Of a stretch of DNA of 64,000 nt, positions 2,704 through 64,000 are shown one piece after another. The stretch's first letter is position 1, and each line of letters begins with the position of its first letter. This DNA comes from Takakia lepidozioides (taxonomy: Eukaryota > Plantae > Bryophyta). The stretch is from NCBI GenBank assembly GCA_030704615.1, contig CM060733.1, positions 37,448,001-37,512,000 of the forward strand. Reading direction: 5' to 3'. The notes under the pieces are model-generated. The model was not told the DNA's origin. It did no database searches and was given only the letters and a program-made list of their open reading frames with translations. Both the position numbers and the translations under genes were made by a program.

Positions 2704-2961
2704 AAAGTGATGATCGGTGGCGATCATCACTTTCACATGAGAGAGAATGCAACATGGGTTGGCAAATCCTTATGATTATGTAGACTGCACAAATGGGAAA
2801 TGTGATGGTCGGCACCGACCATCACTTCATTCATCAGAAACAGACTGCCTATGATAACAGAGGCATGATTAAGGATGGAAACAAGGACATGATCAACAGT
2901 GACAACTGTTTGACTGGAGAATATCATAGCAGTGGATGTGATGATCGGTACTGACCATCAC
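2704..2961. repeat. Three copies of the 24-bp palindrome (intronic)
   Basis: Copies start at ~2707, 2802 and 2938, inside the predicted 2649-3048 intron. Confidence 0.9.
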
Positions 2962-38522: not shown

Positions 38523-38965
38523 TTACGAGTAATCCCCACAAGAACAAACCCCATCTTGGAAGTCGTGAAAACACTTGGGATCCCGTATAACAACTGCTCG
38601 CCCAATAGTTTTTGAGATGAACTTGGTGGCAGTGTGGTAGTCACCACACACCCCAAGAGTCTTGATGATGCAAATAGGTGCACAAGAGGGTGTACTGATC
38701 AGCCCAAAAGCACTGGCCGGCTTCTCACCATGGTGGCAAAGGGAAAATGCATTTTGCTCCAACTTAGTAACACACCAACTTAGTAATACATCATGTAACA
38801 CAAAGCGTGTGCCAGGCACATATCCAGCCGCCTTCATCTGTTCAGGCAACGACTCCAACTTAGTAAGAATTTCCTTAATTTGTGGATGAACTTTGTCTCC
38901 TACAACAAATATATGTACCTGGTTGTCAACCTCAATGCAGCTGTGTGGCCTGGCTCCATTCTCTC
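38523..38965 (-). pseudogene. Detached, degenerate E+/DYW domain of the PPR gene
   Basis: SCIEVDNQVHIFVVGDKVHPQ..MKAAGYVP..HHGEKPA..VCGDYH..RDPKCFHDFQDGVCSCGDYS. HSE is HGE, CxDC is CGDY and DYW is DYS. Confidence 0.85.
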
Positions 38966-39138
38966 AGACGCTAGCATGCAAAACTCCACTTGTGTTTGTC
39001 CGCCGTGACCACTTTAATGAAGAGCCTTTCCTGAGAAAGATGCCAGAGGTACTCTGACACCTCTCTGTTATATCCACTTGTGTTTTAACTAAAGACTGTG
39101 TGCAACTTTCCGTAGGTATTGAGGACTTCCATGAAGAA

Positions 39139-40803: not shown

Positions 40804-41218
40804 ACAGATTCACATCAGAGATGCTACAGCTCCTCATGTCGTTTGCTTCCCCTCTCTCCTTCCTCCCTCTTTAACTTAAAATTTTTCAGAGCGAGCGTGC
40901 ACAAGGCACACCAACTTAATGCACACACACGTGCGATCGATCACTGACAGGACGGTTTCTGGCCTATTCCCCGCCTCCCTTCAGGAGTGACATTGAACAG
41001 GGTGACACTAAGACGAATGTTGCTCCAATCGGGTGAAGCCGAAGGGAGTGTCACTCCACGTTCGTTTTGTCCGGTCGCTAGTCTGGAACGGCCCTTATAT
41101 ATCCGTCGGCATCAGAAAGCGTTGCATCAACGATTGGCAAGCGAGAAGGAAGACAGTGATCAAGGATCAGAAAAAGTGCGGAGCAGTTTGGCTCTGTCAC
41201 TCCCATCTCGCTCACAGA

Positions 41219-42870: not shown

Positions 42871-45800
42871 TTACCCCCGGCTACTGCAGAGAGTTGCTCT
42901 CCCCTTTCCTTTGGGCAGTTTGCAGGCGCCAGAATCTTCAACATCTTTGAGCTTGTAGTAGTGGGGCGCAATCTCAACCAACCACTCTGGCTTGATCTCA
43001 ATCACCTGTCGCATGAACTCCTTTGTGGTTAGAACAAGCTCATTGTAAACCACCCACCTTGCAGGCATCACCTTACACAGACCTGAACTTGGGTGTATGC
43101 TCACTGTTTGTGGATTCTTGATAGTGCAATATGATCCATTCTTTTGCAGCTTTGCTGTGTGATGAAAGAAGCCAGAAGTGATGGCCTTCTTTATGGCCTC
43201 AAGGTCATGTGGATTGGAAATAAGCTTGATATCCACGCGCTCCATAAGACCTACTAATTGGTCCCTGATGTTACGTGCTCGCTTCATACTCCGCACTTGA
43301 ATGTAATTTGCATAACACCATTGTGTAGAGTAATTCGTTTCCATCCATGTGTTGTACACCTTGAGGAGGGCAAGATGGTCGCCAACGTTCCCTGCATGGA
43401 AATTCATGTGTGCATTGTCAGCGTGCACTTGCTTGTTCTTGGGGCGGTAGAAAATAGAGTTTCCTGTAGAAAGCATGGCACATATGGTTACAATCTCCTC
43501 TGAGCATTGAAACTGATCTGAAGCGATCAACATCTTGGAGAGCATTGGGTCCAGTGGAAACTCCGCCATCCGCCTCCCTGTCTTTGTCAACTCCCCGCGG
43601 TCATTCAACGCACCGAGAGCATAGAGCTGCTCTAAAGCCCTGAAAAGTGTTTCAGCTGGAGGGGGGTCCATGAAGTCAAAGTTGATCGGCTCATGGATGC
43701 CCAATGTCTTCAGTAATAAGACCACATTACCCAAATTCGTTCTTTGAACTTCAGGTATTGTGTTCTCGTCCATTTCATTTCTGAATGACCACTTAGTGTA
43801 CAGACGATAACATCTTCCAGCAGAGGTGCGACCGACCCGACCAGCACGTTGTTGAGCCGCAGACTGAGAGATAGAAGTAACGGTAAGCGACTCCATACCA
43901 GAGCGAGGATTGTAGCTTTTTTGCTTACAGAAGCCGGGGTCTATGACATAGCGGATACCATCGATTGTAAGAGAGGTTTCTGCAATGTTGGTAGCCAGAA
44001 CAACCTTTCGAGTCCCCTCGGGAGATTCTTCAAAAATCTTTGCCTGCATTTCTGGAGGAAGATTTGCATAAATAGGCAGTATTATGATTTCTGAAATATT
44101 TGAACCAAGACCTCTAATCCTATGTTTCAGCATCTCTTCCATTGCTTCAATCTCCTCTTGACCTGGAAGGAAAACCAGAACGTCGCCTGTAGGTTCTTCG
44201 ATGTGGATCTGTAGGATTGTCATTATTGCTCCTTCTATAGAGCCCGCCGGTTCTGGTGTTTTTGCATAGAAGATTTCTACCGGAAAACGTCTACCTGGTA
44301 TACGAAAAATGGGTGCATCGTCAAAATAGGCAGAGAACTTCGTTGCATCCAAAGTAGCACTTGAGATCAGCAATTTGATATCCGTCCGAAACCGTGTGAT
44401 ATCCTTGAGAAGACCAAACAAGATATCTGTCGACAGGGTCCGCTCATGTGCCTCATCAATTATCATGACACTGTAGCTGGCTAGATCGGGTTCACTCAGA
44501 ATTTCCCGCAGAAGCATGCCGTCTGTCATGTACTTGATAATTGTAGCTTCTGAAGTGCAGTCCTCAAAACGGATGGAGTACCCAACCTCACGACCCAGTT
44601 TGACCGACATCTCTTGAGCTACACGAGCGGAGACACTCATGGCAGCCACCCTTCGAGGTTGTGTGCAACCTATTTTTCCAAGCTTACTGTACCCTGCTTC
44701 GTGAAGGTATTGGGGGATTTGAGTAGTCTTTCCACAGCCTGTTTCTCCTTCGATCACAAGAACTTGGTGATGTTTTATTGCATCGAGGAGTTGATCCTTG
44801 TACATATATATTGGTGTTGTCTTCCGATTCTCTAGAAGCTTGTGTGCGGTCTTTGCAGCTGTTGATCTCACTTCTTCATTTATTTCTAAATCTTCCTCAA
44901 CCTCGTGTCCAACCATGGTAGAAGCATGGATGAAATCAACCTGGTTGTCAAACACAAACTCATAATTATCTCCGCTCCTCTTGCTATTATGAGCTCCAAA
45001 CCTGAGGGTCCCTTTATCTCTTTGTTGTTCCTCCCACGATTCTTGTTCAGCAAATCTGTTGATTTTTCCATCCTTGTCCACATTCCTAATAAAATCTAAA
45101 GCACAATCAAATTTTATGCTCCTTCTGTCGTATTCCACAGGCATTCGATACTCCTCAATATCGTTCACATCCTTTGCACGGTGTTTTGCAAGCTCATAAA
45201 CTTCCTTCTTGTACGAATATTTTGCCTGCTCTTTGGTTGTCAGTTTTTTATCTCCAAATAAAAGCTCTTCATCAATCAACTCATCCTTGAGCATTTGCAA
45301 CTTCTTTGCCTCTCTCACTTTCAAGTACTCTTGTCTCGACTTTTCCCTTAGCGTAGGCAGAAGTTCGTTTCGTCCGTGAGCTTCTCCTTTTCGTCTCGCT
45401 TCCTCTACTTGTCTTTTCGACAACCTAAAACACTCTACGTTTCTTAGGGTACCGATATCCTTCTCATACAAACGCTTTTCCAACTCCTCCTCACATTGAT
45501 CCTCCTCTCGAACTCTTTTCCTTCCCGCCTCTTCACCATCATTTCCCTCCAGTTTCACCCGCCTGCTCCGACCCCGTTTCATGGGCCGCGCAGTGTCCTC
45601 GTCTACATCCTCTTCACCTTTTCTGCGACTGCTCCCGACGTTCTTCCCCACGTAGCCTACGTCCACCACAACTCTGGCAACCTCTGCCCGTTCAACATCA
45701 TCGGCATCCAACATATCAGACTGCGCACTCGAACCACCGACTTTGCATAACATGTGTCTATGCAAATTCTCGGCAAACGTCTGAGTACCTTTTGAAACAG

Positions 45801-45954
45801 GGAACTCGTAATTCTGCAAGTGATCGATTAGGTCTTTCACGGATTCGGTCTTCTCTGCTATTCTCATCACAAATTGAATCACGGTCGGTGTGTTGTAGCC
45901 CAGCAGTTTTAGCAACCAGTCTCCGATCCACCTGCGTGTCTCTTTGTCGTCCAT
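42871..45954 (-). CDS. Intronless DEAH-box pre-mRNA splicing RNA helicase, Prp2/DHX16 (ESP3/DEAH1)-like
   Basis: 1027-aa ORF with a PWI-like N-terminus, SRQEYLK..KKL, GETGCGKTTQIPQYL, TQPRRVAAMSV, DEAHER, SAT, LATNIAETSLTI, QRAGRVGR, HA2 and OB-fold ending WLVEIAPHYY. Confidence 0.95.
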   Translation of the reverse strand: MDDKETRRWIGDWLLKLLGYNTPTVIQFVMRIAEKTESVKDLIDHLQNYEFPVSKGTQTFAENLHRHMLCKVGGSSAQSDMLDADDVERAEVARVVVDVGYVGKNVGSSRRKGEEDVDEDTARPMKRGRSRRVKLEGNDGEEAGRKRVREEDQCEEELEKRLYEKDIGTLRNVECFRLSKRQVEEARRKGEAHGRNELLPTLREKSRQEYLKVREAKKLQMLKDELIDEELLFGDKKLTTKEQAKYSYKKEVYELAKHRAKDVNDIEEYRMPVEYDRRSIKFDCALDFIRNVDKDGKINRFAEQESWEEQQRDKGTLRFGAHNSKRSGDNYEFVFDNQVDFIHASTMVGHEVEEDLEINEEVRSTAAKTAHKLLENRKTTPIYMYKDQLLDAIKHHQVLVIEGETGCGKTTQIPQYLHEAGYSKLGKIGCTQPRRVAAMSVSARVAQEMSVKLGREVGYSIRFEDCTSEATIIKYMTDGMLLREILSEPDLASYSVMIIDEAHERTLSTDILFGLLKDITRFRTDIKLLISSATLDATKFSAYFDDAPIFRIPGRRFPVEIFYAKTPEPAGSIEGAIMTILQIHIEEPTGDVLVFLPGQEEIEAMEEMLKHRIRGLGSNISEIIILPIYANLPPEMQAKIFEESPEGTRKVVLATNIAETSLTIDGIRYVIDPGFCKQKSYNPRSGMESLTVTSISQSAAQQRAGRVGRTSAGRCYRLYTKWSFRNEMDENTIPEVQRTNLGNVVLLLKTLGIHEPINFDFMDPPPAETLFRALEQLYALGALNDRGELTKTGRRMAEFPLDPMLSKMLIASDQFQCSEEIVTICAMLSTGNSIFYRPKNKQVHADNAHMNFHAGNVGDHLALLKVYNTWMETNYSTQWCYANYIQVRSMKRARNIRDQLVGLMERVDIKLISNPHDLEAIKKAITSGFFHHTAKLQKNGSYCTIKNPQTVSIHPSSGLCKVMPARWVVYNELVLTTKEFMRQVIEIKPEWLVEIAPHYYKLKDVEDSGACKLPKGKGRATLCSSRG

Positions 45955-46086
45955 GCCACTCTATCTCCCGTTGACGTCTGTCTTGTTCTACACTGTCAGC
46001 CGCTTGCAGTGACTCAATCCTTGTGACTAAGTTGGTGCTACTTATACTCGACATGAATAAACAAAAGGCGGGAATGATCAAACTTT

Positions 46087-47950: not shown

Positions 47951-48919
47951 AGAGTTAATGGATGTAATGTAAGGGGAAAACAAGTGCCAATAAAACCCTA
48001 AGGTTTATCAAACGAACGGTGAACGGACGGAGATAAGGTAGAGTCGGAAGGAATGAATGTGGCAAACAGTGATGAATTCATCAAGGGCATGTGCGGATGA
48101 AGAGGATAGGAGAATGGATGACGTTGGGTATTACTTATGTGCTTCATTACGACAACGGATGAATGGATTATGAACGGTCAGCATCAAAGAACGGTTCATC
48201 GGGGGGGGCAGGAGGTGTGCTTTTACTAAGGAGGGCCAACGAGACTGTGGATGAATGAACAGAGATGTTGGATGAAGGTAGAGGAGATGGCGACATGCAG
48301 GACGTTGATGCAATACAGATCAGCGGCTGAGGGGGCGCCGCCCTGAATCAACAGGGTACATGACTAAGCAGATGCTGATAAATACGTTTTGAGCTGAAGG
48401 ATACTATCAAGACCTCATTAGTTGCCACTTGGCCATGTATTAAACACACAGAAGAGAGGTACACCCAAGGCGGGTAATGTGTTTAGTATTAGAATAATCA
48501 GTTGAGCGGTGATCAAAGTGGAGTGGCTCCAACTAAGGGGCTAACCTACTACGTTTTGGAGGGTACAAGGCAAGTAAGCAGAAAGACAACAAAGGGGCAT
48601 TAGCATTCGTAATGATGGGAATCAGGACTATCGGAGAGTGAGTGCAGATGGTAGACTGAGAGAGGAGATGGCCGCGAGAGGGTGGTCTAATCGCGATGGA
48701 CGTTGATACCATGAACTTAGGTAGAGATCAGAGGAGAGATTAGTGTTGTACTCCAGTGACGAGACAATACATATGCACGTTTTGGGTTCGCCCTTGATCA
48801 TAGTATGGCTGCACATTGTGTTGGTTCCAGTTCTTGAGATAGATAGAAGAATCGCAGTTCATTAGAGAGGGCTCTGATGTTTCTACTGGTGGTCGCATTA
48901 GTGAGAGAGAGTACTGAGG

Positions 48920-49107
48920 TGTCGTGCGCATACATATCGCTACACAACTACATCGCTGTCCAAAACCACACAACACATGTGCACGCCACACACTAGTATA
49001 TCATTAGTCCACCACTAGTCTAGCCACTAGTCCAACCACTAGGCTACAACTAGTCAGTCACTAGGCTGCCACTATGCTGCCCACTATGGCAGTCACTAGT
49101 CCACACA
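48920..49107 (-). repeat. LTR segment A, copy 1 (3' end of element)
   Basis: Near-identical to 58446-58621 (few substitutions, one 12-bp indel); begins TGTGTGG and ends CGACA on the coding strand; rich in CACTAG. Confidence 0.95.
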
Positions 49108-49118
49108 ATCGCCCCCCT
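49108..49118 (-). other. Polypurine tract
   Basis: AGGGGGGCGAT on the coding strand immediately precedes the TG of LTR segment A. Confidence 0.75.
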
Positions 49119-49367
49119 AGCTGGTGCTTAGGTCCCTCTAAGTCCAGATAGCCACAAGATGTGATAGTGACCATAGCCTCACTAAGTCCTCCACCACTAT
49201 CCCTACTACACTCAAACTCGATAGATCAAGAGGTCGGGTGCAAGAGTTGCCCCATCGTTAGTCGCCGTCTTGCAACCTGTGAACTTGAGCTTGGGATCTC
49301 ATGTATTGACTCCTATGAGTTTGGCCTCCCATGTCTTGTTAGCTGCCTCCAGTCATGTCCACTGCCA

Positions 49368-50917
49368 CTATCCCAAGCAGTGTGGACACAACCAATCTCC
49401 GTCAGGAACCTTCTCAAGAGGTGGTGTCAAGCATCCCATATGCCAATCCCTTGAGCATCGATCACACACCAGCATGGTGGCTTCCCCTTTGGCAGACCCA
49501 CAGAGCATGCACCTCAAACCTGCAGTACCAATGCCAAGTTTGGGTCAACTCTGCCATCGACATTGGGAAGGTGACATGGCGCACAATTACGCACATGGTC
49601 TTTCCAAGTATGCCATCCCGACCCTCCAAGATCAGGACTCCTGAGGGGCAACACCTCTCGAACCTCAGAATAACACGCCCTGCAGTAACATCCAGGGTCG
49701 TAGGAGCAGTCTGCTGCAAATAAACATAGTCATCAGGGCTAAACCTCCAAACCCCAGGACGATATCCTCCACCACGTATAGTGGCATACCTCAACGTATC
49801 ACGGTGCTGTGCAATGCAAGGTTCTCAAAAGCCATGGGCATGACTTCTTGAACAACTCTGCACGCTGATCACATACACGTACCCACACGTCCGGATCGTC
49901 AAGGTTAAGGACTTGAGCAGTGTCCCTACGAATGGCTGCAGGCAAATCCGGTCTCGGCCAAAGAGAAGGAAATATGGTGAGAAGGAGGCAAGTGAGGCTT
50001 GTTTGCTGAACCTGTAGCCCATGGCTAACCAAGGAACCTGAAGATCCCAATCTCCTAGGTGTCCCTTCTGCAAGCCATACTTGCGCAAACCCTCTTCACC
50101 GTCTGAAAACTCTCTCTGCCAAGCCATCGGCCTCAGGATAATCCCGAGAAATGGTGCGGTGGTCTATCAAGGCTTTATCACACAAAGCCTGAAACTCCCC
50201 CAAGAACTCTCTCCTTTGGTCCGTGAGTACCTTAGCTGGAGCACCAAATCGGCTAAGCACACGATCAAAGAATGCATACGCCCCCCTCACTAGCCTTGTC
50301 AGGCAATGGAACCAACTCAATCCACTTGGAGAAGTGCTCCACCATCACCAACACATATCTGTGGTGGTGCATAGTCAGTGGCAACGGTCCTACGAAGTCA
50401 AGACTCCACCTTTAGCCCAATCTCATGATTGGTAAAGGATGCAACTGTGGTGTAGGGGCGTTGAATGAAGCACGCACCTTGTCACACACCATGCACCTAG
50501 CCACGAACTGTTGCACCTCTGTATGCATACCACGCCACCAATACTGCCCCTGTGAGTGCGTCACACTCTAAAATGCCCCAACTCCTCATGGGCATGCCGC
50601 ACTAACCGTGCACGCTGTGTGGGGTGAGGCACAATCCTCACCCAAACATCCTCCCACACTCGAAACAGGTGTATCCCCTCCCACTTGAACCTCTTGGCTC
50701 GTTGTAGGATCCGATCCCTCTCCTTGGCAGTCACACTAGCTGTCGTGTCTCCAGTGCGGAGGTAGTCCAACACAACCGAATCCTCGTGTATATATCTAGC
50801 ACCACCTAGCTCATCACTAGTCTCAGGGTCCTCAGACACTCCGTCTACAGTCATCCCTGTTGTAGGTCCAACCTGACCTCCCGATGCCAAGATACACAAA
50901 AAACAGATGCATGCCAT
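49368..50917 (-). pseudogene. Retroelement integrase (HHCC zinc finger, rve core) with C-terminal PHD finger; frameshifted
   Basis: HAHEELGH..YWWRGM..CMVC; WSLDFVGPLP..VEHFSKW..FGAPAKVLTDQ..DGLAER; SPYFLLFGR. PHD CMLCGSAKGEATMLVCDRCSRDWHMGCLTPPLEKVPDGDWLCPHC at 49368-49511. Confidence 0.9.
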
Positions 50918-51233
50918 CCCGGCACCATCTCCTCGTCCATCTCACCATGCCACCGAGCTCCAGTGTCATCCTGCTAGCTCGTGCATGGATTGCAACTCAA
51001 TCCATCCGCATCCATATTGACCTAACCCGGTCGATGCACAACCTGAACATGTCTCTCATGCTCCTCCACCGTAGCACGAGAGGCAAAGCAATTCCTGTAA
51101 GCCTCAGGAACCGCCGTATATGTCGTCTCTCTCCTCTAGTGACAATAGGTCCAATGTCAGGCTCCCAATTGCCCTTCGTAACTGCAACCTTAAGTCCAGC
51201 AGACTTAGAGGTAGAGGACGCGTCCCGTGGTTG

Positions 51234-53126
51234 CTATGCCGCAACCTCTTGAGCAATACTCCTTGCCTGCTCAGTCAATGACAAGGCCTCATCTTGCCCC
51301 ATCATCTCATCCTTGAGGACTTCCTCCACCCGAGAAAAATCCCCAACCTCATCTATCACCGCCACCTTGGCTGCCAACTCCCTCTGAACCTCGAGCACCT
51401 CCCACGTGTGCCATGGATGCCTGCACCCCGTGGTCCTCACATGCTCGCCCCCACTCGCTGCCTGTACCGTCTCGGTAGGCAGAGAGACCATCGAGGGAAG
51501 TGTACTCCGCACTCTTCGTTGCTCAGCCATAGCCAAGCTGATAATCCAGGTCAAGCAATTTAGATCCATTGCTTGCCCCAACACCTGACGACGTGATGCC
51601 TCAGAAAGAGAAGGCACCGCCGTGGTCCCAGTGGAAAAACCCATAGCCCGCTCTCGCTCGTCGGCATTAGGCTCCACTAATTGCTGCAACTGAGCATCCC
51701 ACAGGAGGCCACGTCCATTATCCCAAAAAGCATGCGATCCTGGGAAGCTGAGCAGTGTAGGTAGTACCGCTCGTGGTTGACCCACCTTGTTGACCACTGC
51801 CAAAGGTGAACGGTCATCGTATCTCACACGCTGAGACTGCCTCCCTGTGTCCAAAATGTTATCCACTGTGAGGTGTGTTGGCCACTGCACCCCATCAAAT
51901 GCACGCTTAAGCAGTGCGGGTGGCATCAAGTTAGTCCACCATAACCGTGGACGATGAGCCCGTGACCCCACTGCAGCTGCATCCAGCAATACTGCTGACC
52001 CAAGCCACAACCGGACTTGATGTACACTGGCCATCACCCTGGCCCGAGAATCGCCTATCAGTGGCACATTCTCCAAGATGTATGCTGGAGATACAGCCTG
52101 ATGAAGCTGTAAATGGCGCAAAACCCGCACCATCTCCCAAAACAGACCTGACCTCGAGTCTCGCAATCCATTGCCATGCTTGGCTGATGAATACCCTTGG
52201 CACGGCCAACCTGCCACTACCAAATCAATGAAGCCAACCCGCTCCAAATCCTGCGCCCCCAGCAAAGAGATGTCTGCTGGCAAGGCCTGCTGATATCCAC
52301 GAACCGCAGACACCGACAACAACTCACGATACTGCTGCACCAACTGAGCAATATAACGGAGTAAGACGCGTCGTACAGTCTCATCCCTCTCCATATATAG
52401 GTAACGCCGAACTCGTACACCTGCCTGTAACAAAGCAGCCAATCCGGTGCTGATCCCACCAAACAAGTCCAGAAGACAAATGCCTTCATCCGGATACTGC
52501 CACACAATAGATGTGGTGTCCAATGGAGACAACTGAGGTGGTCCTGGTGCAATCCCCGCACTCTTCTCCTCTCCTGATGGTACAAAAGCCTCCACCCAGG
52601 CTTGTTGCACCCGTCGATCAGCATCCCGCTGCAAATCCTTGCTCATGCCCCACAATGGAGTCTGAGCAACCATGGTAGGCAACTCCGCCATACCATACAT
52701 GTCATCATGCTCTCCCGGAGGTGGCACATCCTCTGAATGAGCGTTGCCCTCAAGCAACTCTCTAGGCCAACTCACTGTCGCTGTGAATGCTGCTAGTGTC
52801 GGCATCTTGCCTCGTTGGGCAACCGCAACTCCTCCTATGAACGTCATAGGGAGCTGCACACGCCGGCCCTCCCCTGACTGCCATGCAGGCCTATAGGAAG
52901 CTGACTCCTCCCAAAAATCCAGGGTGAAGCCCATGGGGTACAACACTGCCCCACCAACAAGGACATCGTACGAGACCGCGTTTGTCACAATGGCCTTGGC
53001 TCTCATCACTGATCCATCTGTAGGATGATCCGGCTGTAGTCTGATAGCCAACTCACGCCGTGTCATGCCCCGAACCTGCTCTGATCCTCCCAAAGATGTC
53101 TGTATCTGGAAAGGGCACGGCTCCAT
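51234..53126 (-). CDS. pol segment: protease C-terminus plus C5-cytosine DNA methyltransferase domain (~51540-52490)
   Basis: Uninterrupted 630-aa ORF with motif I LDLFGGIS, II YMERD, III DI, IV AGWPCQG, V DSRSGLF, VI ILENV, VIII AHRPRLWWTN, IX ERERAMGF and X RQVLGQAMD in canonical order. Confidence 0.93.
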   Translation of the reverse strand: MEPCPFQIQTSLGGSEQVRGMTRRELAIRLQPDHPTDGSVMRAKAIVTNAVSYDVLVGGAVLYPMGFTLDFWEESASYRPAWQSGEGRRVQLPMTFIGGVAVAQRGKMPTLAAFTATVSWPRELLEGNAHSEDVPPPGEHDDMYGMAELPTMVAQTPLWGMSKDLQRDADRRVQQAWVEAFVPSGEEKSAGIAPGPPQLSPLDTTSIVWQYPDEGICLLDLFGGISTGLAALLQAGVRVRRYLYMERDETVRRVLLRYIAQLVQQYRELLSVSAVRGYQQALPADISLLGAQDLERVGFIDLVVAGWPCQGYSSAKHGNGLRDSRSGLFWEMVRVLRHLQLHQAVSPAYILENVPLIGDSRARVMASVHQVRLWLGSAVLLDAAAVGSRAHRPRLWWTNLMPPALLKRAFDGVQWPTHLTVDNILDTGRQSQRVRYDDRSPLAVVNKVGQPRAVLPTLLSFPGSHAFWDNGRGLLWDAQLQQLVEPNADERERAMGFSTGTTAVPSLSEASRRQVLGQAMDLNCLTWIISLAMAEQRRVRSTLPSMVSLPTETVQAASGGEHVRTTGCRHPWHTWEVLEVQRELAAKVAVIDEVGDFSRVEEVLKDEMMGQDEALSLTEQARSIAQEVAA

Positions 53127-55411
53127 ATCCGCCTCTGCCCAACATCAATGGCTGAGCTCCCGAGTCCAATAAGACCCGCAGTGGCCAGTACCTCTTGCCT
53201 GCCGATCCACTCAAACAGAAAATGCCATCCTGGTTGTCTAACATGACAACTCCAGGTGTAACCATGGCGCGCTCAATGGCTAGCCTAGCTGGCAGCTCCA
53301 TCAACCTGGCAGCTGTAGCTTGCCATGGCGCCGCCGTGGCAGTCTTGACCCTCAAATCCGAGGATCCCTCCGGCACTACACCTCCCACTATCTCCACAGA
53401 AGATGAAGTAACCTCCCTACTCTCACAGAGTGTAGCTGCCAACCTGAACACCTCAGCTGGTCTTACCCCCGGCGTCGCAATCATGGTAGATGAGAACAAT
53501 GGAGCCTGATGTGGCCGCTCCTAGCAGCACACTAGCTGCCGTAGCCTTGGCAACACTAGGTAGTGGTGCTACCCGTGTAGCTCTCCCCAATGGCATAGTA
53601 ACCTCCGCCTCGGTAACAGTCGGGCGAGAACTTGGTGTCATGGACGGCGTCGACACTGTCTCCACCAATGTGAATGACTGAGGAAGCCTGGCCTGACGGC
53701 TTGCCTCCCCACGCTATGGATCCAACTCCACCTCCGCACCTCGTGGCTCAGGAACTCGTGTTGCTCCTCGAGTCACTGCCGCAGCTGACTCCACTTGCAC
53801 TAGTGGTAGTCCTGCCCCGCACATAGTGGTAGTGGTAGTGGCACCCCTCATTAGTGGTAGTACTGCCCCCCACATGAATCCCATGCCTCCCAAGTCTCCT
53901 CCTTCAGGAGCAGGAGGTGGACCATCCGGCCTTGGAGCCGGTACCACCTGAGCTGTGGCCATGGCAGCGAGCCTCTGCTCTAGCTGCTGAAGCCGGTTGG
54001 CCATGCCTTGGTCACCACCCTGACCTCCACGTCCTTGGCCATGTTGAGCTTGCCCTTGGCCTGCACCTCGTGCCTGGCCACCTCGTGGGCTGCTCCACCT
54101 CGCCCCCGGCCACCATTGTTCCCTTGGAACTGGCCTGGGCGCAACTCAGGATGCAAACCATAGCATTGGGCTTCTCCATGCCCGTACTTGCCACAATGCC
54201 CACACTGCAACTGTGCAGGCTGTGCATGTGTCGGCCCTTTGCCTCCCTCTGGGCAATCCTTCTTGACATGGGGTCCTCCACATGTCCAGCACACCACATC
54301 CGCCCGTTGTTGGCCAGCAAATGAAGGGAGAGACCCCTGCATCTGAGGTCCTCTCTGCCCTTCCCTGAGCTTCACCTGAGCCCCCTTGTTGCCTTGAGCA
54401 CGTTGAGGTAGTGGTTGGCTAGGAGCACCACTACCCCGTGGTGTCTCCTTAGCAAATCCCACCATGACCACTCGTTCCTCCACCATGTTGAGCTCTATCC
54501 GCTCTGCCAGCAAAAACACATTTGCTAAGGTGGGTTGGGCCGCTTGTAGGAGAGTTGCATCCCGCACCCTTCTCTTCAACTCCTTGTCCAATATCCCATA
54601 CCAGAATTGGACTGCCTGAGCTTCCGTAACCCCTTGGGTTACATTTATCAAGCGCCTCATGCGAGTGAAAGCCTCCCTCAAGCTCTCGGTCGGCTTCCGT
54701 TGGAACTCTTGCAAGCTCCGCAACTTCTCTGTCCTCACCCCTTGGTAGTTCCCTCTCAACTCTTCGAAGAACTCCACAATAGGGTTGAAGGTAGGCACGG
54801 GTACTGGTGCTAGTGCGGTAGTGGCTTGGGTAGACGTCGTAGCTACGGTACCACTAGTCCCACTGCTGCTTGCTGAAGCTGCCAGTGCAGCGGCAGGTGT
54901 AGCCACTGCCCTCGTGACTCTAGTGCCCCTAGTGATGGAGACATAGTCGGGTGACCAGTACATCCTCCACTCCTTGATCTCAACCTCATGCCCCCGCCTG
55001 AACTCATGGTAATCATCCATAGGCGGCCCCTCAAGGTGCTGAAACAGCCCCTTTCATGCCGTGAAAGGCCTAAATAGTTGTGGATGGCGCATTTGCTGCA
55101 AATCACACCAACTATCAAACTCTTGGATAAAATCATCCAACTCGATGATGCCCCACCCCAGAGTACCTTCGTGGCCCCTTGGTAGCTCCATACATCTCCT
55201 CCATTGTGTCCCACAATAATGGCAAGGAAACAACTTGCACCGTCGGTATGAGTCTTCCTGATTCACAATCCGAATCAGAACATTCCGTAGAAGACACAGG
55301 AGGTAAAGGTGGCCTAAACCGCACACCTCGTCTCGTGTACCCACTAGTATCACTAGTGCTCGAACCGGCACTATCCCCAGCAACTAGTGGCACCTCCATG
55401 TTGACACTCAA
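53127..55411 (-). pseudogene. gag (capsid-like region, two zinc knuckles) and aspartic protease N-terminus; stops and frameshifts
   Basis: LDDFIQEFDSWC..LQEFQRKPTESLREAFTRMRRL; CWTCGGPHVKKDC and CGHCGKYGHGEAQC knuckles; VLLDSGAQP protease active site at ~53150-53175. Confidence 0.88.
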
Positions 55412-56084
55412 CTGGTCATGAACATGTCTCTAACCCCCTCTCCACAAGGTAACCGGGTAGAGAACCTGTTGCGGCTTATGCTTTGGAATACTAAGTTCCT
55501 AACATAGCCTACACCTGTACCTGCATCCACCGCAAGCACTCCTATGGTTGGCTGATCATCACCTCCAACCTCACCACAGGAGAAACAATGATGGTCTGGT
55601 TGGTCATCACCATAGCCTCACCATCGACAGCATGCTCTAAGACTGGCCGGTGATCAAATCCGGACCAATCACCTATAAAAACAAGCGCCCACACAAAACT
55701 AGCATGGCGTACAGTCAAGCATGCAGGTATGGAGGGGATCCAAACACAATAAATCAGAACGACAACTCCCCCACACCAAAAACAACTCCACGGTGTTGCT
55801 CCTGCAAGGACACCCCAGACCAAACCCGGACTGACTCTTGCCTCCACCTACGGAAAGGTCTTGGCCTAATGAGAGGGTGGAAACTACGAGGAAGAGAAGC
55901 TAAAGCAATGCCTAACCCCAACATGCCCTCATCCCAATACTCTTCCTCTCCTCTCTTCCCTCACTTGCATGACCATGGGAATATCATGAAGATACTCCTC
56001 AAACCGCCCTCCACGAGCTTCAAAATTCGGCCTTCAAGACCACATGCCAGTCCTTAGACAGTCCATCAATGCCTCCACGAGTCA

Positions 56085-56600
56085 GCACAGGCCGTCCACA
56101 GGTCAACACGGGCCACCACAGACCAGCACAGGCCCACACACCTCACTGGTCACAACCATCACAGCCCCACACAGGCCACAGCCTGTCACAGCCCGTCACA
56201 GCCCATCACAACCCCAAAGGCCACAGGCACAGCCTGTCACAGCCCTACAAGGGTCACAGGGTCACAGCCCCAAAGGCCATAGCCTGTCACAGCCCCTCAC
56301 AGCCCCATAGGCCACAGGGCACAGCCTATCACAGCCCGCCACAACCCATCACAACCCATCACAGCCTGTCACAGCCCCTCACAGCCCCACAGACCACTGG
56401 GCACAGCCTGTCACAGCCCGCCACAGCCTGTCACAACCCCTCACAGCCCGTCACAGCTCGCCACAGCCTGTCACAACCCGTCACAAACCCCACAGGCCAC
56501 AGGGCACAGCCTGTCACAGCCCCTCATAGCCCGTCACAGCCCCACAGGCCACAGGGCGCAGCCTGTCACAGCCCCTCACAGCCCCACAGGCCACTTATGA
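56085..56600 (+). repeat. Minisatellite of TCACAGCCC/GCCTGTCACAGCCC units inside the retroelement leader
   Basis: Dozens of CACAGCC(C/T) motifs with higher-order CACAGGCCACAGGGCACAGCCTGTCACAGCCC blocks. Confidence 0.92.
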
Positions 56601-57029
56601 CAGTTTAGCCATTTCTCCAAGGGGTTTAGCCACGCCAAGCTAGGGTTTGTGTCTCTTGGACTCTAGGCTTCTTTGCACCAAGCTATGGCGGCTGTGAAGA
56701 AATCAGCAAGGTATTCTTGCTCTTTCGGCTCCCACACACCACCAATAGTAGCCCTAAGCCATGAGGAAGATGGTTGCCACAAACCAAGCCTTCTTTCTCA
56801 CTTAGACTCCCCAAACACGCCACTAAACTCAATGGCAAACAACCAAGCCTTGCTGGTTTCCAGCCCTTGTGAGCACTCATTCAAGCGTTTCCCTTGGCCA
56901 TAGCATCTGTCTTAGAGCTTATTCCAGCCCCCTACACCTGCCACTTCAAGAGCCATGCTCTATCTAGGCTTGAGGTTGAAACCCCAACTCAGAACACGCT
57001 CTACAAGTGTCGGACTGTCACATAAGAGC

Positions 57030-57440
57030 AGATCAGCCCCTTACCTTCTCTTCTAGTTCTCTAAAGCTTGAAAACAAAAGCCCAATGGACTGAAGGCATG
57101 CTCCACACATGCCCCACTCTCACCACCAGAGAATCAGCCCCTTTGCTTTCTTTCTTGCACCCACCAACCTAAAAATACACGCTTCAGCGGGCTGGAAGCA
57201 TGCTCCACACATGCCCTACAGGGAAACCAGCCCCTTCATTCCTTTCTTGCACTCCCAAACCTGAAAGTACAAGCCTTCAACAAGCTGAAAGCATGCTCCA
57301 CACATGCATTGCTCTCACATAAGGGAAGTCAGCCCTTCCCTCTTCCTTGCTTGCCCTCCAAGCTTGAAGATGGAAGCTTCAATGAGCTGAATACATGCTC
57401 CACACATGCAACCTCTTCACACAGAAGTATCAGCCCCTAT
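57030..57440 (+). repeat. Four diverged ~100-bp tandem units inside the retroelement leader
   Basis: CATGCTCCACACATGC occurs four times and CAGCCC(C)T five times at ~100-bp spacing. Confidence 0.85.
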
Positions 57441-58106
57441 CTTGGCTCCTTAGCTCCTTGATGCTCTCTAAGACAAGACTAAGCACTCCACAGCCCTTGC
57501 CAAGCTCCTGAAACCCTAAGGCTTACATTTCCAACCACAAGACACTCCTCTTGTGGTGCAAGAGCTCTTCTTCCAAGCTTTGAAACCCTAGGTGCACATT
57601 CCATGGCCTTGCCGCACCTCTTAGCTCATGTTCCAGCCCTGCTTTTGTCATAACAAGAGCCCTCTCAATGCTGAAGCTCGAGATTGAAACCCAATCTCTA
57701 CATACTCCACAAAGTGCACTGATTTGCCCCAAGCCAAATCAGCCCTTTCGCTTGGTCTTGCAATCCTTCACACAATGAAAGCTTGCATTCCCAAGTCCAG
57801 TTCTCAGCTTTGCCACCAAAGCCACTATAACCTGCTCTTGACTGGTCCTCTTCCCAATCGTGCTTGCTCATGCATGTACACAATCTGAAACCATCAAGAT
57901 GCTCTGGAATTACCTGCAGCATGGTGCTTTCATCTCTGAAGCTGAAGATCAAATGCCAAGGTCTACCACCTCGTAACCCACATCGCCTCCGCTTCTAACA
58001 ACCAAGAGCTCCATGGTGCTCCTTGCATAACAACCTGGTTTCTCTCATTCTCAAGCAAAAACCACAAGTGCTACAACTAACTCGTATCTGGCACTCACAG
58101 ATACGA

Positions 58107-58122
58107 GCTCATCTTTCTCGAG
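58107..58122 (-). other. Primer-binding-site position occupied by a self-complementary sequence (putative self-priming PBS)
   Basis: CTCGAGAAAGATGAGC follows the LTR-terminal CA on the coding strand and is the exact reverse complement of 58282-58297 inside LTR segment B. It does not begin with TGG. Confidence 0.7.
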
Positions 58123-58443
58123 TGATAAAGAAGAAGAATACAAGCACAAGCTCATGCGAGCTCACAAAGCTGAAGCACATGCATATATAAACTCACCACT
58201 CAAATACAAGTCAAGCCAAGTGCACCCCACGCCATGGGGAATCCACACTACGGCGCCATAGCTAGGCGCGGTGAGGCTCAACTCGAGAAAGATGAGCCTC
58301 CCGCGCTTGCCGTGAAGATAACCACTCCAGGGCCTAAATCTGCCTTGACCCCTGGATTGACACTTGGGCCAATCCCAAATGTCAATATATAAAAGCTAGC
58401 TATTTCCTAGCTAGTTTCACACTAGTGGTAAAATAACTTGACA
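58123..58443 (-). repeat. LTR segment B, copy 1
   Basis: Near-identical to 58623-58949; TG...CA bounded. Confidence 0.95.
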
Positions 58444-58445
58444 AC

Positions 58446-58621
58446 TGTCGTGCGCATACATATCGCTACACAAATACATCGCTGTCCAAAACCACACAAC
58501 ACATGTGCACGCCACACACTAGTATATCACTAGTCCACCACTAGTCCAGCCACTAGTCCAACCACTAGGCTACAACTAGTCAGTCACTAGGCTGCCACTA
58601 TGCTGCCCACTAGTCCACACA
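58446..58621 (-). repeat. LTR segment A, copy 2
   Basis: Near-identical to 48920-49107; separated from B1 by 2 bp and from B2 by 1 bp. Confidence 0.95.
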
Positions 58622-58622
58622 A

Positions 58623-58949
58623 TGATAAAGAAGAAGAATACAAGCACGAGCTCATGCGAGCTCACAAAGCTGAAGCATAAACTCATGCATATATAAACTC
58701 ATCACTCAAACGCAAGTCAAGCCAAGTGCACCCCACGCCATGGGGAATCCACACTACGGCGCCATAGCTAGGCGCGGTGAGGCTCAACTCGATAAAGATG
58801 AGCCTCCCGCGCTTGCCGTGAAGATAACCACTCCAGGGCCTAAATCTGCCTTGACCCCTGGATTGACACTTGGGCCAATCCCAAATGTCAATATGTAAAA
58901 GCTAGCTATTTCCTAGCTAGTTTCACACTAGTGGTAAAATAACTTGACA
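58623..58949 (-). repeat. LTR segment B, copy 2 (5' end of element)
   Basis: Near-identical to 58123-58443; followed on the plus strand by the GAGG target duplication. Confidence 0.95.
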
Positions 58950-59401
58950 GAGGGTAACGTAAGCATTCAAACAGTATGCATGCTACGGGTGGCGGTACAG
59001 AGAGCGACGTCATGGATTAGCCACACGGGCAAAATGGGACGAAAGTAAATGAACGATCTAGGACTTGGAGAGAATAGCCAAAGGGGCATCTGTATGATGT
59101 CAATCATTGAGCACGCACAAGAACAAGAGGCGAGTAAACCAGATTCAGCAGGCATAGTCTTGTAGAGGCGGATAAGGTGATAATGGGATCATCCGAACGC
59201 TGATATGGTTGTGCATACGGGTATTACAAGCAGCCCGTGCCGCACCACCCCACGGGGTCACGATATCTTGTCTGAACAGTGGTCACAGGTTGATAAGAAG
59301 AGAAATGAACGAACAAGAGATAGTGATTAAACAAGTTGTCAAGTCCAGTCTAGGTGTCATAATGATTTCTTACTTTCCGCTGCGCCTCATGTAGCATCAA
59401 A

Positions 59402-62400
59402 CACTACAACAGATTGCGGCTTTTATGACTCCCATGGGTGCGCAGTCACGACAAATTTGTGGCAGAAATGCCATTTGCAGTCGTAAATGCCTTTGAAGTC
59501 ATAACATAGATCACGACGAAGCCGTTTATGCAACTGTATGACTCCGAACTTTGCGCAACACAGGTCAAACAAGTTTGACCAAGAATATTGCCATGGCGGA
59601 TATGACTACCAATCAGGGTCATGCCCATTCTAGAATGACGTGTGCATATTGCTAAACGGACATATGACTTCATGACTGCCACTCTAATGCATTCTGCCAG
59701 ATCATCACATGTCGTCATGACATGGTGAGTCTGTGACATGGAACAACTTATGAGGTGTCTACATATGATTGGTTAAGTGGTTTTGATATTGTGGTGCGGG
59801 GGATACAAGTGTAGGGAACGGTTGCACACGAAGCAGATTAGTAGGCAGTTTGCGCTTTGTGGAGAAGAATGGAACGTGAAGCCAACATGCTAGAGAGGCG
59901 ATCTGGAACCGCATCTGTTTGTGACGTTACGTTCAAATGGTGGCGTGCATTTCAGTATTTGTTGATCGCGGACAACTTCAAAAGCAGGCCTCATACTGCG
60001 GAATAACAGACGAACAAATGATGCATTCAGGGGATACCTAAACTTATGCAAATCATTCAATTCACTCATGAGAATGATGCAAAACATTGCTCAACAAAAG
60101 TCTTTGAGCAGTGACCAAGAACACCAACAAAATATAAAATCCAATACACTCTAACATATCGCCTTGTGCATGCCGTCCCTGTAGCAGGCCGTCCCGGAGC
60201 TCGACGCCGTGTGGTACTGGAATAGAAGCTTGGCAATACGGTCTGTTCAGATCCACCCACTTTGCCATGGGGGGGTGTTCTAAGAATGGGAGAGCCCTTG
60301 AATTCTGCTTCTTGTATGATAAAACAACTGAGATAACAACTCATGTTGTTCTCTCTAATGTACATATCCCCAATGACCTGCCCCAAGCTAGAACAACAGC
60401 AGGATGACATCAGGGAATAATGATGTGGTGCAAGGCATGGAACACCTGCAGGGCAGCAGCATTGTATTGCTGAATGTACTGCACCCTGCTTGAGCCATTC
60501 ACAGATGGGGGACTCTACAAGTGAGTCACATGGTGTTATATCTGGGGCATGAGAGAAACTGCCCATAAAATGCATCTGCACAAAGAACCCATTCAACCAG
60601 CCAAAGCATCATCTACGCGGATTGCCGGATTTTTTTGGGGAAAAATGCAAACATGATAAGTAGGGACCAAGCTTAAAAGCACTCCACTGGTATTCAATGG
60701 TCCATAAACACAAGCCTGCCCAATATAAGACCCACAAAATCACTAGGGCAATTAGGTAATGTAAACTGAAAGGTACATGCACTTTGTCAACAATGTACCC
60801 AAAGGCAGAACTGATGTGTAAATCTGCATGCCGTTCCAAAGTCTATAGTGACATAAATGTCATGTCACGTTGCCAGACAGACACGCCATGTAAGTTGGAC
60901 ACCTCCAACACCCTGCAAAAAGGACACCCCCAAGGGCAACCCTTAGTGCCAGTCTTACGATTCCCACATTATTCATGAATCAATCGGGATTACATATTGA
61001 ATTTTGCCCAATACCACCCTTCATATACTTGAGATAGAGAAAGGCAGTTGGGGGAGAAAGTCGTACCTCATTCAAGGTACTAGTACACATCCACATCAAC
61101 CAACTCCTCATCACTGGACTCTGAATCTCCATTGCAACTGTCCTCCGTGGGACATGGATGTGCTTCCTCAGATCGCATGTCTCTGTAAAGTGAAGCAACC
61201 TCTTTAGGTGTCACTTGGATGGTCTGGCCCACCCTGTCACCAGCAACATTGGTCTCTTCAATGTGATTGGGGGCTAAGAGGCCTAATACACTTGCAATAT
61301 CATTGTTGCAAATGCTCACATCACAAACAGCCCTGCGTGACCTGGGGTTTTTTTCCAGCACCATGTTCCATCTCAGTTCATTCACACACTCAGAGAAAAA
61401 AACTTGCTCGACCTGTGATGGGAGCACAAAAGGCTGTTCAAGTGGAGGCAACAAGTGGGAGAAATTCACCGATGTGAAGCCAGAGTCATCCTGCTTCATT
61501 GACACAGGCTGAGAGCCCACACGTCGTGCACGTACCCATGAACACAATAGCACCGTGGTGTGTGTGGAGCCATAATCCAATTCTAAAATCTCCTTTATGA
61601 CACCCACATACCGTACGCTCTCCACCACCTGCTCACCTGAAATGCAAGTACAGTCATGCTGGAAAACAGTAGAGACCCCCGAGTCATATGTCACAAAGGG
61701 GCTGTTGAGTCCATCTGAAGTAACCCTGAAGTGGTTTCCATAAGCCGACATGCTCTTGTATGATGTTGCAATTAATGATGGGGGTTTGGACATGTCCAAC
61801 AATTCCTTGCAGGCTGAATCAGTAGCATGGTTGGCAACACTTGACACATGCTGGCGGACTGCCGTTACCAGCCATTCTGCAAAGTGAGGGGGAGCACGGA
61901 TCCTGTTCTGGTTAGCAGCATTTTCAGTCTCCAACCTGGATTTCTCCACCTCATAGGACCTGCCAACACACGCACAACCACATCAATTTATCAAGTGCAA
62001 CCCCTGCAGCCGATGGAAGAACTACTGCACACACACCTATACAAAACATACCCATGCATAGCAGGTACCAGAAGCTGTGACATGCACTCACGTTTGCCAC
62101 TTACCCCAACATAATGCTCAAACTAGGATGGTTGTGAATGACGTAGTCGTGGACAAGCTGCAACAATTCGAGGGTCAACCTCCGTGGTCAACCAACTCCT
62201 TCCAACACCCAGCCCGACACTGATTCCTCGTCTCCTGTATCCCACACTCTCCGCCTAGTAGCATCAACAGAAGACAAGTACTCTGTACAAAATCCCAATG
62301 CCTCGTCAAACACGTAGCCCTCCGCCATACTGCCCTCAGGCTTTGCCAAGTTTCGCACATACCCTTTAAATTCCTTCATTGCTCTCTCCACCGGGTACAT

Positions 62401-64000
62401 CCACCGAGAAGCTACAGGTCCACACAAATCCAGCTCATCCACCAAGTGGATAAGTAAATGTGTCATAACATCAAAAAAGGAGGGTGGGAACTCTTTCTCC
62501 AGAAGACAAAGAGTCACTACCACCTCCTTCTTCAATTCCTCATGCTCGGTGGGATCAATGAATTTTGCACAAAGCTTGCAAAAGACATGAGACACTCTTA
62601 GTATGGCATTGCGAACCCCAGGCGCCATCAACCCACGTAGAGCAAGTGGGAGGATCTGTTGCATGAGCACATGATAATCATGTGACTTCAATTGGCTCAA
62701 CTTTTGTTTGACCACATGCTTTTTGAAAGCAAAGGCATGGCCAGTGGGTACTTTCAGATTCGTGATAATCTCCAGGAACACCCGTTGCTCTGTTTTTGTG
62801 AGCACATATGGCGCATCAGGCATTACCAATGTATCCACTCTGGTGGGATGGCGTCGTAACCAAAGAGGCTTTTGAATGCCCTGCAATTCCAGATTGTGGC
62901 GAACTTTCATCGTGTCTTTTTCGCCGAAAAGAGTCTTGATTATGTTCTCCGTCACGTTCTTCTTGCAATGCATGGTATCAAAAGTGTGGCGGATGATAAG
63001 ATGCTGCACCATGTGGTCTAACAAATTAGGTACATTGCAATGTAGTCATGAATGATGTTAACAGCACAGGTTCAGTAAACAAACAATCATGCACAATGAA
63101 AACCAATGCACTGTTATGTTCCCAAAACACAGGTGTGGTAATCGCACCTCCCAGTAAGGCAAGTCAAACAGAATGGACAATCGTTTTACGCCATGGAGCC
63201 TGGGGGATCGTTCTGTGCGCCTACAGTCCCACCATCATCAATCCATTGTTTGTAATGTTGTGCACGCTCCTTGATTTCGGTGGCTGTCACTGTATGTGGA
63301 ACAGGTCTCATGTCTCACGCCCCATTAAAAATTCTGGATCTTCTATAGGCATGATTGTGGGGAAGATAGCGTCGATGCCCTTGGAATATCAATTTCTTGC
63401 AAGCTGGGGAATATCTGGAATCGACTTGAGGTCCACATGCTGGACAAGTAGAGTACCCTTGGTGAACCTGACCTGATAACAAGCCATAGGCAGGGAAGTC
63501 ATGTATGGACCACATGAGGACTGCACACATGGTAAAAGCCCGCTCTCCTTCAATGGCTGCCACATCCACGGCTGCAACTCCCACCCACAATGCCGCTAGC
63601 TCCTCCACTAGTGATTGTAGGTAAACATCCACATTTTCACTTGTCACAGATTCCTTTCCAGGAATGAGGAGTGTTAACATGACAAAAAAATTCTTCGTTA
63701 CCAACCATGGAGGTAGATTATAATTGAGCACCATGAAGGGCCAAGTGGACCAAGAAGCGGATTTTGTGCCATAAGGATTGACCCCATCCAGTGCCAATCC
63801 AAGACGCAGATTTCTTGGATCAAAAGCAAAATCCGGCCACGTGTTGTCAATATGGCACCAAGCCTTACTGTCTGCAGCATGCCAGACCATGCCATCTGCA
63901 CTTCTATGATTGTTGTGCCACTTCATGAGCTCTGCGAGCATCTTAGCTCGGAACATCCGTTTCAATCTAGGTATGAGAGGAAAGTATCGCAGCACCTTCT
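59402..64000 (-). mobile_element. CACTA (En/Spm) DNA transposon, continues beyond the window
   Basis: CACTACAAC terminus at 59402 and a TnpD-type transposase on the minus strand. Confidence 0.8.
61080..64000 (-). pseudogene. CACTA TnpD transposase (Transposase_21, DUF4218- and DUF4216-like regions), 5' end outside window
   Basis: LRYFPLIPRLKRMF..DPRNLRLGLALDGVNPYG..YNLPPW..HDFPAYG; LKSHDYHVLMQQILP..FPPSFFDVMTHL..RWMYPVER..PEGSMAEGY; YVGVIKEILELDYG..QPFVLPSQVEQVFF. In-frame stop at 63315-63317; probable introns near 63020-63150 and 61950-62100. Confidence 0.9.

Follow-up and report, generated by a model that had tools for sequence, protein, structure and literature searches.

A decayed Ty3/Gypsy-type retrotransposon of the moss Takakia lepidozioides belongs to a bryophyte family that encodes a DNMT3-type cytosine methyltransferase ahead of a conserved in-frame stop

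Results

The element and its parts

The 64,000-nucleotide stretch of the moss Takakia lepidozioides analysed here (assembly GCA_030704615.1, contig CM060733.1, positions 37,448,001 to 37,512,000; 'the window', numbered from its first letter) carries on its minus strand, between 48920 and 58949, a single insertion of a Ty3/Gypsy-type retrotransposon family that encodes a C5 cytosine DNA methyltransferase of DNMT3 type. The element has ends TGTC...GACA and is flanked on both sides by GAGG (plus strand; 48916-48919 and 58950-58953), a 4-bp target duplication. An empty allele exists: contigs of runs X1 and X3, both from one sample, connect 48915 to 58950. Duplication and empty site show that the boundaries given by a first-pass annotation, made from the sequence alone, were exact. 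The site is polymorphic and the insertion young, with repeats ~98% identical. Its parts follow the order 2.9-kb leader, gag, protease, methyltransferase, remnants of reverse transcriptase (RT) and RNase H, integrase and PHD finger, between repeats here called X and L:

58950..58953 and 48916..48919, unstranded: partners of the target-site duplication GAGG (sequence and empty allele)
58623..58949, minus: repeat X1, 327 bp, beginning TGTC, left element end (315 of 321 aligned letters identical to X2, plus one 6-bp gap)
58446..58622, minus: repeat L1, 177 bp, terminating GACA (174 of 177 letters identical to L2, plus one 12-bp gap)
58440..58449, unstranded: internal palindromic junction GACA-GT-TGTC (end of L, 2 bp, start of X), predicted integrase attachment site (same junction in six relatives; heterogeneous host flanks)
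58123..58443, minus: repeat X2, 321 bp, containing at 58297-58281 the complement of the primer site (repeat comparison)
58107..58123, minus: predicted self-priming site, 17 nt, perfect complement of 58297-58281 (0 of 200 shuffles reach 17 nt)
55205..58106, minus: non-coding leader, 2.9 kb, with tandem arrays of a 10-bp unit (56177-56584) and a ~93-bp unit (57135-57307)
54086..55204, minus: gag with two motifs resembling zinc knuckles, broken by frameshifts near 55153 and 54086 and by a stop near 55054 (weak PF03732 match below cut-off)
53133..53508, minus: N-terminal part of the aspartic protease, LLDSGA at 53172-53155, with a short deletion shifting the frame at ~53133
51234..53144, minus: 636-codon open frame of protease C-terminal part, linker, methyltransferase and 96-residue tail (free of stops and frameshifts over 1,896 bp)
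51525..52502, minus: DNMT3-type C5 cytosine methyltransferase domain, motifs I-X in order, with catalytic Cys, ENV and RxR
51228..51236, minus: in-frame TAG, then CAA CCA (matching CAR-YYA), predicted to act as a readthrough signal
50899..51233, minus: RT leader, ~10 RT codons and RNase H tail (two large deletions, at ~51081/51077 and ~51047)
49524..50830, minus: DDE integrase including a zinc-binding domain, disrupted by many frameshifts and stops (rve E=6e-4, under the cut-off; tblastn against intact relatives)
49374..49523, minus: PHD finger closing the integrase (PF00628, E=3.4e-12)
49109..49122, minus: polypurine tract immediately before L2 (a GGGGGG tract also precedes L in relatives)
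48920..49108, minus: repeat L2, 189 bp, terminating GACA, right element end

The window copy thus shows the TG...CA ends and a target duplication within the 4-6 bp of Ty3/Gypsy elements. The order protease, RT, RNase H, integrase, with a DDE integrase and a Ty3-like RT, is complete in an intact relative (L059), whose RT matches that of Ty3 best (E=1.6e-39); the window remnants keep the same order, and the Ty3/Gypsy assignment of the first-pass annotation stands. The protease domain of this relative is detectable by Pfam, below the cut-off, and the window gag is 55% identical to the Marchantia protein P0002. The solved PHD fingers nearest to that of the window are those of CHD4, KDM5B/5A, WSTF, PHF21A and ATXR5.

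This copy is dead. Two deletions take out the RT core together with most of RNase H; at 51081, 51077 and 51047 the loose ends of other copies run on into RT and RNase H sequence. The 'RT remnant' annotated earlier therefore consists of the RT leader and about ten RT codons, the core being gone and the rest RNase H tail. Frameshift-aware alignment places 20 other lesions, six in gag-protease and 14 in integrase-PHD, within 3,752 flanking bp, against none in the 1,896-bp methyltransferase frame (P ~3e-4 by length); lesions in eight control loci are evenly distributed (63, 67 and 58 across the three regions). Choice of one open copy out of a very large family may explain the lesion-free frame. 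Because the window domain deviates at 5 of 95 conserved columns, against a median of 2 among relatives, and because four of eight codons with well-supported private differences are non-synonymous, we do not read the open frame as domestication. The first-pass annotation proposed that the lineage could methylate its own cDNA or its insertion neighbourhood. This copy cannot methylate its own cDNA, since Gag, protease, RT, RNase H and integrase are all broken; working copies might do either.

A DNMT3-type methyltransferase

The open frame matches PF00145 (E=2.7e-11, 43.9 bits; cut-off 22) in the hidden Markov model check, in keeping with the earlier description of an apparently intact C5 methyltransferase. 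Its motifs, under what we take to be their I-X numbering, are I (DLFGGISTG, 52469-52443), II (YME, 52397-52389), IV (GWPCQG, 52211-52194), VI (ENV, 52073-52065), VIII (AHRPRLWW, 51959-51936), IX (ERERAMGF, 51659-51636) and X (LGQAMD, 51581-51564). Motif IV contains the catalytic PCQ and motif VIII the RxR. The order is unpermuted, which sets the domain apart from DRM, and the domain is intronless. Among solved structures a single-sequence comparison ranks DNMT3A first (9e-11), then DNMT3B, DRM2 (1e-6 to 1e-5) and M.HhaI (7e-4); a profile of 29 relatives gives DNMT3A 6e-19, the best non-DNMT3 match, HaeIII, 9e-7 and tobacco-type DRM 3e-6. An AlphaFold model (mean local confidence, pLDDT, 77.8; predicted template-modelling score, pTM, 0.82; residues 101-108 and 226-265 largely unresolved) retrieves DNMT3A and DNMT3B at the top of a Foldseek search (E=4e-17, TM 0.67/0.78), with a structural identity to DNMT3A of 21-22%. 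Motifs, sequence and modelled fold together confirm a DNMT3-type C5 methyltransferase domain, as had been proposed from the motifs, and predict its activity. Observed over expected CpG comes to 0.64 in the methyltransferase domain and 0.37 in a host gene, with the remaining element parts at 0.28-0.49.

A conserved stop between two frames

The enzyme had been placed inside pol. It lies instead at the end of the Gag-protease frame, ahead of a conserved in-frame stop, and not in the frame that contains RT. The intact L059 displays this directly: a frame of 1,369 codons (protease, methyltransferase) is followed by one TAG and then by 1,047 codons (RT, RNase H, integrase, PHD), in which the first Met lies inside RT, so that the observed order is Gag-protease-methyltransferase, stop, RT-RNase H-integrase-PHD. 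Both frames are open in L059 (976-8226), and a second relative, L061, has the post-stop frame open; both lie on metagenome contigs.

We scanned metagenomes and took the best 80 of 142 loci, of which 77 were examined and 52 could be anchored at the RT leader; many loci are one insertion recovered in several assemblies. The remaining 25, which were truncated or had diverged too far to be anchored, include L057, L059, L061 and L080. A stop lies 17 codons before the anchor in 51 of the 52 (35 TAG, 16 TAA), the last being frameshifted, and a sense codon occupies the position in none. The frame continues across the stop in all families. The codons that follow read TAG CAA CCA in the window, L005 and L080, and TAG CAG TTA or TAG CAA TCA in L057, L059 and L061: the nucleotide pattern CAR-YYA is constant while the encoded residue varies (Pro, Leu, Ser), and UAG-CAR-YYA occurs in five families. 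CAR-YYA is described as the readthrough signal of tobacco mosaic virus (TMV) type (PMC2194720). The stop is accordingly a candidate for readthrough, and methyltransferase and Gag would then be made in equal amounts. As the same stop predicts, four proteins of Marchantia (P0002, P0003, P0007, P0009) and one of Calypogeia (P0083) end 77-81 residues past the domain. The 93 nt downstream of the stop, when folded, gave no structure common to four families.

Split terminal repeats

Neither the window copy nor its relatives have two complete direct long terminal repeats (LTRs), one at each end. The window layout is X1 L1 X2 ... L2, hereafter XLX..L; the mirror form X..LXL occurs in L077 and L052. Ten loci retain both ends: X..L is found in seven, X..LXL in two and a rearranged form in one, with a perfect 4-bp target duplication in seven, one mismatch in two and two mismatches in one. 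Every form begins at the TGTC-type end of X and finishes at the GACA-type end of L.

Inside the element these same two ends meet at the joint GACA-NN-TGTC, present in the window and in L003, L019, L052, L059, L061 and L077; blastn finds no match between the X of the window and that of L077, though the joint is shared. In runs X1 and X3, heterogeneous host flanks start at 58443-58446, exactly the start of X and the end of L, and ~99% of the depth at 58444 in run X1 is perfect palindrome. The L/X junction is fixed while the X/L junction varies: L052 has filler there, and host contigs show deletions of several kinds. The bare motif GACA-NN-TGTC is non-diagnostic, matching 43 times in 680 kb of loci, mostly at one chance site in Sphagnum-type coding sequence. 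A second junction, CATGACA-GT-TGTCA, lies at L047:16707 downstream of the main element, among nested fragments, and possibly belongs to a further family member.

In the window as in L077, the 17 nt that follow X could pair without mismatch with a stretch inside X, the letters being different in the two (a match of this length arose in 0 of 200 shuffles), and such a self-priming match is strong in seven of ten cases, in one of them elsewhere in X. No TGG-type primer site was seen by eye after X or L, and the 64-kb window contains no tRNA gene. Since the ends are bounded by the palindrome, with a polypurine tract before L and a primer site after X, the true LTR would be L+NN+X, cut inside by integration. 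One- and two-LTR circles opened at the palindrome would yield exactly the three forms.

Relatives, abundance and selection

In run X1 108,698 contigs fall on the element, with a summed depth of 0.6-1.1 million (a rough guide to abundance, not a copy number) against 70 for the empty-site joint. We take the family to be very abundant and, depth being alike over gag, methyltransferase and integrase, the domain to be its rule. Protein searches returned 79 longer relatives and 47 of similar length, and a search of 1.84 billion cluster representatives gave 237 matches with E no higher than 1e-30. Identity over the domain is at most 71% in Marchantia polymorpha (whole domain), 72% in Calypogeia fissa, 48-55% in Sphagnum and 35-40% in Closterium and Haematococcus; many other relatives are metagenome polyproteins. 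The named matches, a minority of all matches, include no fern, lycophyte, hornwort or seed plant, and scans of viral contigs gave no relative. This distribution over liverwort and moss elements, in an abundant family, bears out the earlier claim of a stable lineage rather than a one-off capture.

In a FastTree phylogeny of 225 domains, composed solely of relatives found in the searches and holding no host DNA methyltransferase, the window nests with elements of Marchantia, Calypogeia and Sphagnum (support 0.998), within a 72-tip clade (0.815) that contains 33 of the 36 domains lying before RT and one of the 101 lying after it, the latter a spliced gene model. Of 127 proteins, 102 cover at least 90% of the domain, and these keep the catalytic Cys in 98 cases, the Glu-Asn of ENV in 101 and the two RxR arginines in 98 and 99. 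An RT motif stands upstream of the domain in 43 of the 102, and algal-type relatives place the domain between RNase H and integrase; over evolutionary time its position in the polyprotein has changed. The metagenome polyprotein P0022 and ~40 others have the methyltransferase between RNase H and integrase and a C-terminal PHD finger, to which P0065 adds a chromodomain.

Ratios of non-synonymous to synonymous substitution (dN/dS) are 0.10-0.24 for the estimable between-family pairs (window, L005, L057, L059, L061, Sphagnum-type), with dS mostly >1.3 and several pairs saturated; the unsaturated pair L057-L059 gives 0.12. Among decayed Sphagnum-type copies the ratio is 0.43-0.64. By these estimates the domain is under purifying selection in the family.

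Host and neighbouring sequence

A TEL/MEI2-like RRM gene at 19748-24130 (plus) groups with mosses (100/100), sister to three Sphagnum and three Bryopsida proteins, in a tree of 16 rows built with 15 of 24 matches. Together with a PPR-E+-DYW gene this indicates that the contig is not algal, so the embryophyte host assumed by the first-pass annotation holds and algal contamination is rejected. The E+ and DYW parts of the PPR gene (38526-40809, minus) are divided between two open frames; its DYW domain, which terminates in DYS and has no clear HxE motif, may be decayed. An intronless DEAH-box RNA helicase of 1,029 codons (42874-45960, minus; DEAD, Helicase_C, HA2, OB_NTP_bind) is likely a splicing-helicase retrocopy, and two long exon-like frames at 32912-36065 (minus), with no Pfam match, are a probable host gene. 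Other transposon sequence includes remnants of a CACTA/En-Spm transposase at 61080-63998 (minus; Transposase_21, DUF4218, DUF4216) and, at 6641-9815 (plus), a chain of frames with Cys/His clusters that resembles a broken DNA-transposon gene, four scanned pieces of which have no Pfam match; similar remnants lie at 770-3819.

Discussion

Comparison with known elements

The closest described system is KnitGypsy-Dnmt3 of Klebsormidium nitens, which combines Gypsy domains with a DIRS-like repeat layout, Ka/Ks <0.2 and few copies (PMC5890265). In both systems a Gypsy element carries a Dnmt3-type domain that is unpermuted, free of introns and under purifying selection, and the moss element probably works like KnitGypsy-Dnmt3 and is related to it, as compared by description; the named matches of our protein searches include no K. 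nitens protein. The two differ in host and abundance, the moss family being very abundant in a land plant. The repeat layout of KnitGypsy-Dnmt3 is described as DIRS-like and that of the moss family consists of split direct repeats; the two may correspond. In KnitGypsy-Dnmt3 the methyltransferase is described within the Pol polyprotein frame, whereas in the moss element it precedes the conserved stop, although a readthrough product would still join them. Readthrough, self-priming, PHD finger and internal attachment site go unmentioned in the account of KnitGypsy-Dnmt3.

SymbioDIRS-Dnmt3 of Symbiodinium is likewise a retrotransposon-borne Dnmt3, with de novo CG methylation shown in yeast, but it is a tyrosine-recombinase (DIRS) element of independent origin (PMC5890265). 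The EpiLTRs of Cymbomonas and Euglena are also Ty3-type with a cytosine methyltransferase and a chromatin reader; their methyltransferase, however, is sister to DNMT4 and accompanied by DAM and a chromodomain, and their authors separate them from streptophyte Gypsy-DNMT3 elements (bioRxiv 10.64898/2026.05.21.726589). Tcn1 and Tf1-sushi chromoviruses of mosses (PMC6317226) are bryophyte Ty3/Gypsy elements predicted, as here, to self-prime without tRNA. Tcn1 has a chromodomain after the integrase where our family has a PHD finger (one distant relative, P0065, has both), and the survey, compared by description, mentions no methyltransferase or PHD. A PHD finger is known on green-lineage Gypsy elements from Gypsy-7a_cRei and REM1 of Chlamydomonas, with no methyltransferase reported in those accounts (PMC9940879, PMC2774666). 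An in-frame stop between two frames is shared with murine leukaemia virus (MuLV), SIRE1, Tca2 and TMV (PMC2194720); there it stands directly after gag or before env, while the moss stop follows protease and methyltransferase.

Two other identities were rejected: Troyka (as described in PMC12440569), by CG ends and 3-bp duplications, and DIRS/PAT, by the two L059 frames, which have no recombinase match, together with the rve and Integrase_H2C2 matches and 4-bp duplications.

We found no prior description of two features, the enzyme ending the Gag-protease frame before a candidate readthrough stop and the split terminal repeats. Our literature search, which had Repbase and most subscription journals outside its scope, gave no bryophyte or land-plant report of such elements, and none on the candidate readthrough stop or on an internal attachment site; land-plant occurrence of DNMT3-bearing elements may already be recorded in those sources. 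The word 'Marchantia' is absent from the main and supplementary text (figures excluded) of PMC5890265; PMC12344493 and bioRxiv 10.64898/2026.05.21.726589 call such elements just 'streptophyte' in the text available, one supplementary text file of PMC12344493 does not mention them, and bioRxiv 10.1101/2021.02.12.428880, from what is accessible of it, concerns only the host gene MpDNMT3b.

A proposed cycle and its alternatives

We read the window insertion as a dead copy of an abundant bryophyte Ty3/Gypsy-type element whose working copies would probably pack DNMT3 in bulk into their particles and would then methylate their own cDNA before integration, with a probability of roughly 0.7. In such copies UAG-CAR-YYA would be read through at a few per cent, leaving the methyltransferase about equimolar with Gag and well above RT and integrase. 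The LTR L+NN+X, with its polypurine tract before L and self-priming site after X, would yield ordinary LTR-flanked cDNA, which would circularise and be cut by the DDE integrase at GACA-NN-TGTC inside the LTR. Two-LTR circles would produce X..LXL or the XLX..L of the window, and one-LTR circles X..L. Integration would be steered by the PHD finger, which resembles those that recognise H3 tails without modification, and the new copy would land already methylated. Circles are usually regarded as dead ends for LTR elements. The wider picture, a DDE lineage in mosses and liverworts, with algal relatives, in which circles integrate at the LTR palindrome, DNMT3 reaches capsid level, copies arrive pre-methylated and the host methylome is perhaps shaped by them, is one we put forward only tentatively, as less likely than not.

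Several points weigh against the proposed cycle. That the enzyme is active, the stop read through, circles integrated and insertion targeted by the PHD finger is predicted from sequence, and the KnitGypsy-Dnmt3 enzyme gave no methylation in yeast, a result its authors consider inconclusive (PMC5890265). The independent units behind the stop number about five or six families, not 52, and most Sphagnum-type loci read CAA CCC AUG after it, one signal position off and with re-initiation possible. The self-priming match is absent in three of ten cases. XLX..L is known from the window only and from none of the ten loci with both ends, and X..L is obtainable by L-L recombination after insertion or by collapse in short-read assembly.

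Those last points bear on whether circles are involved at all. DIRS/PAT-like copying or rearrangement after insertion could have split the repeats, leaving the role of the enzyme unaffected, and we keep this as a genuine possibility, if not the one we favour: PMC5890265 compares the KnitGypsy-Dnmt3 layout to DIRS, and L-L recombination can turn X..LXL into X..L. The two frames of L059, however, hold a DDE integrase and no tyrosine recombinase match, and the insertions have 4-bp duplications; the mirror forms XLX..L and X..LXL have identical ends and internal palindrome, and polypurine tract and primer site border L+X as in an ordinary LTR. For the stop, RT-RNase H-integrase-PHD might come from spliced RNA or re-initiation, the stop being a true one. 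Automatic gene models for P0004 (Marchantia) and P0020 (Sphagnum) do splice over it, an AUG stands two codons past it in Sphagnum-type loci, and the in-frame gag-pol stop of Tca2 need not be simple readthrough (PMC2194720). Since every family keeps the reading frame through the stop, CAR-YYA is conserved as nucleotides and L059 has no Met before RT, we nevertheless judge this unlikely.

Nor need the enzyme act on the element itself. An abundant methyltransferase could act mainly in trans, on host chromatin or other transposons, and its place before a leaky stop would give far more enzyme than one cDNA requires; in algal-type relatives the domain lies elsewhere, between RNase H and integrase, and its use may therefore have shifted in the land-plant clade. 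But fusion to Gag-protease points to packaging, the CpG ratios carry no special signature either way, and action chiefly in trans seems to us improbable. That selection maintains the window frame, as early domestication or a non-autonomous enzyme-only lineage, is more doubtful still. The excess of lesions outside the frame, set against eight even controls, speaks for it, yet so large a family, with the copy picked for its open frame, could absorb the P value. The insertion is recent and its site polymorphic, the frame no longer connects to Gag, and the changed conserved columns and non-synonymous private codons tell against it. Capture of a host DNMT3 or DRM gene on a single occasion, or algal contamination, can practically be set aside: the domain is intronless and nested among the liverwort and Sphagnum element domains, the neighbouring host gene falls in the moss clade, and sequence identity to the closest element domains is 65-73%, against the 21-22% structural identity to DNMT3A.

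Implications

The split repeats, PHD finger and readthrough signal had escaped the first-pass annotation, and LTR finders would likely miss or mis-bound such elements. Gene predictors label element frames as host DNA methyltransferase genes (P0003, P0097), and bryophyte counts of these genes can be inflated as a result. The permuted ends raise the prospect of a DDE integrase that uses circles, and the conserved, probably leaky stop predicts both the amount of enzyme and its destination. The family extends methyltransferase-carrying retrotransposons from algae to land plants, and because close relatives occur in the tractable model Marchantia polymorpha, what a transposon gains from its own DNMT3 would be directly testable there.

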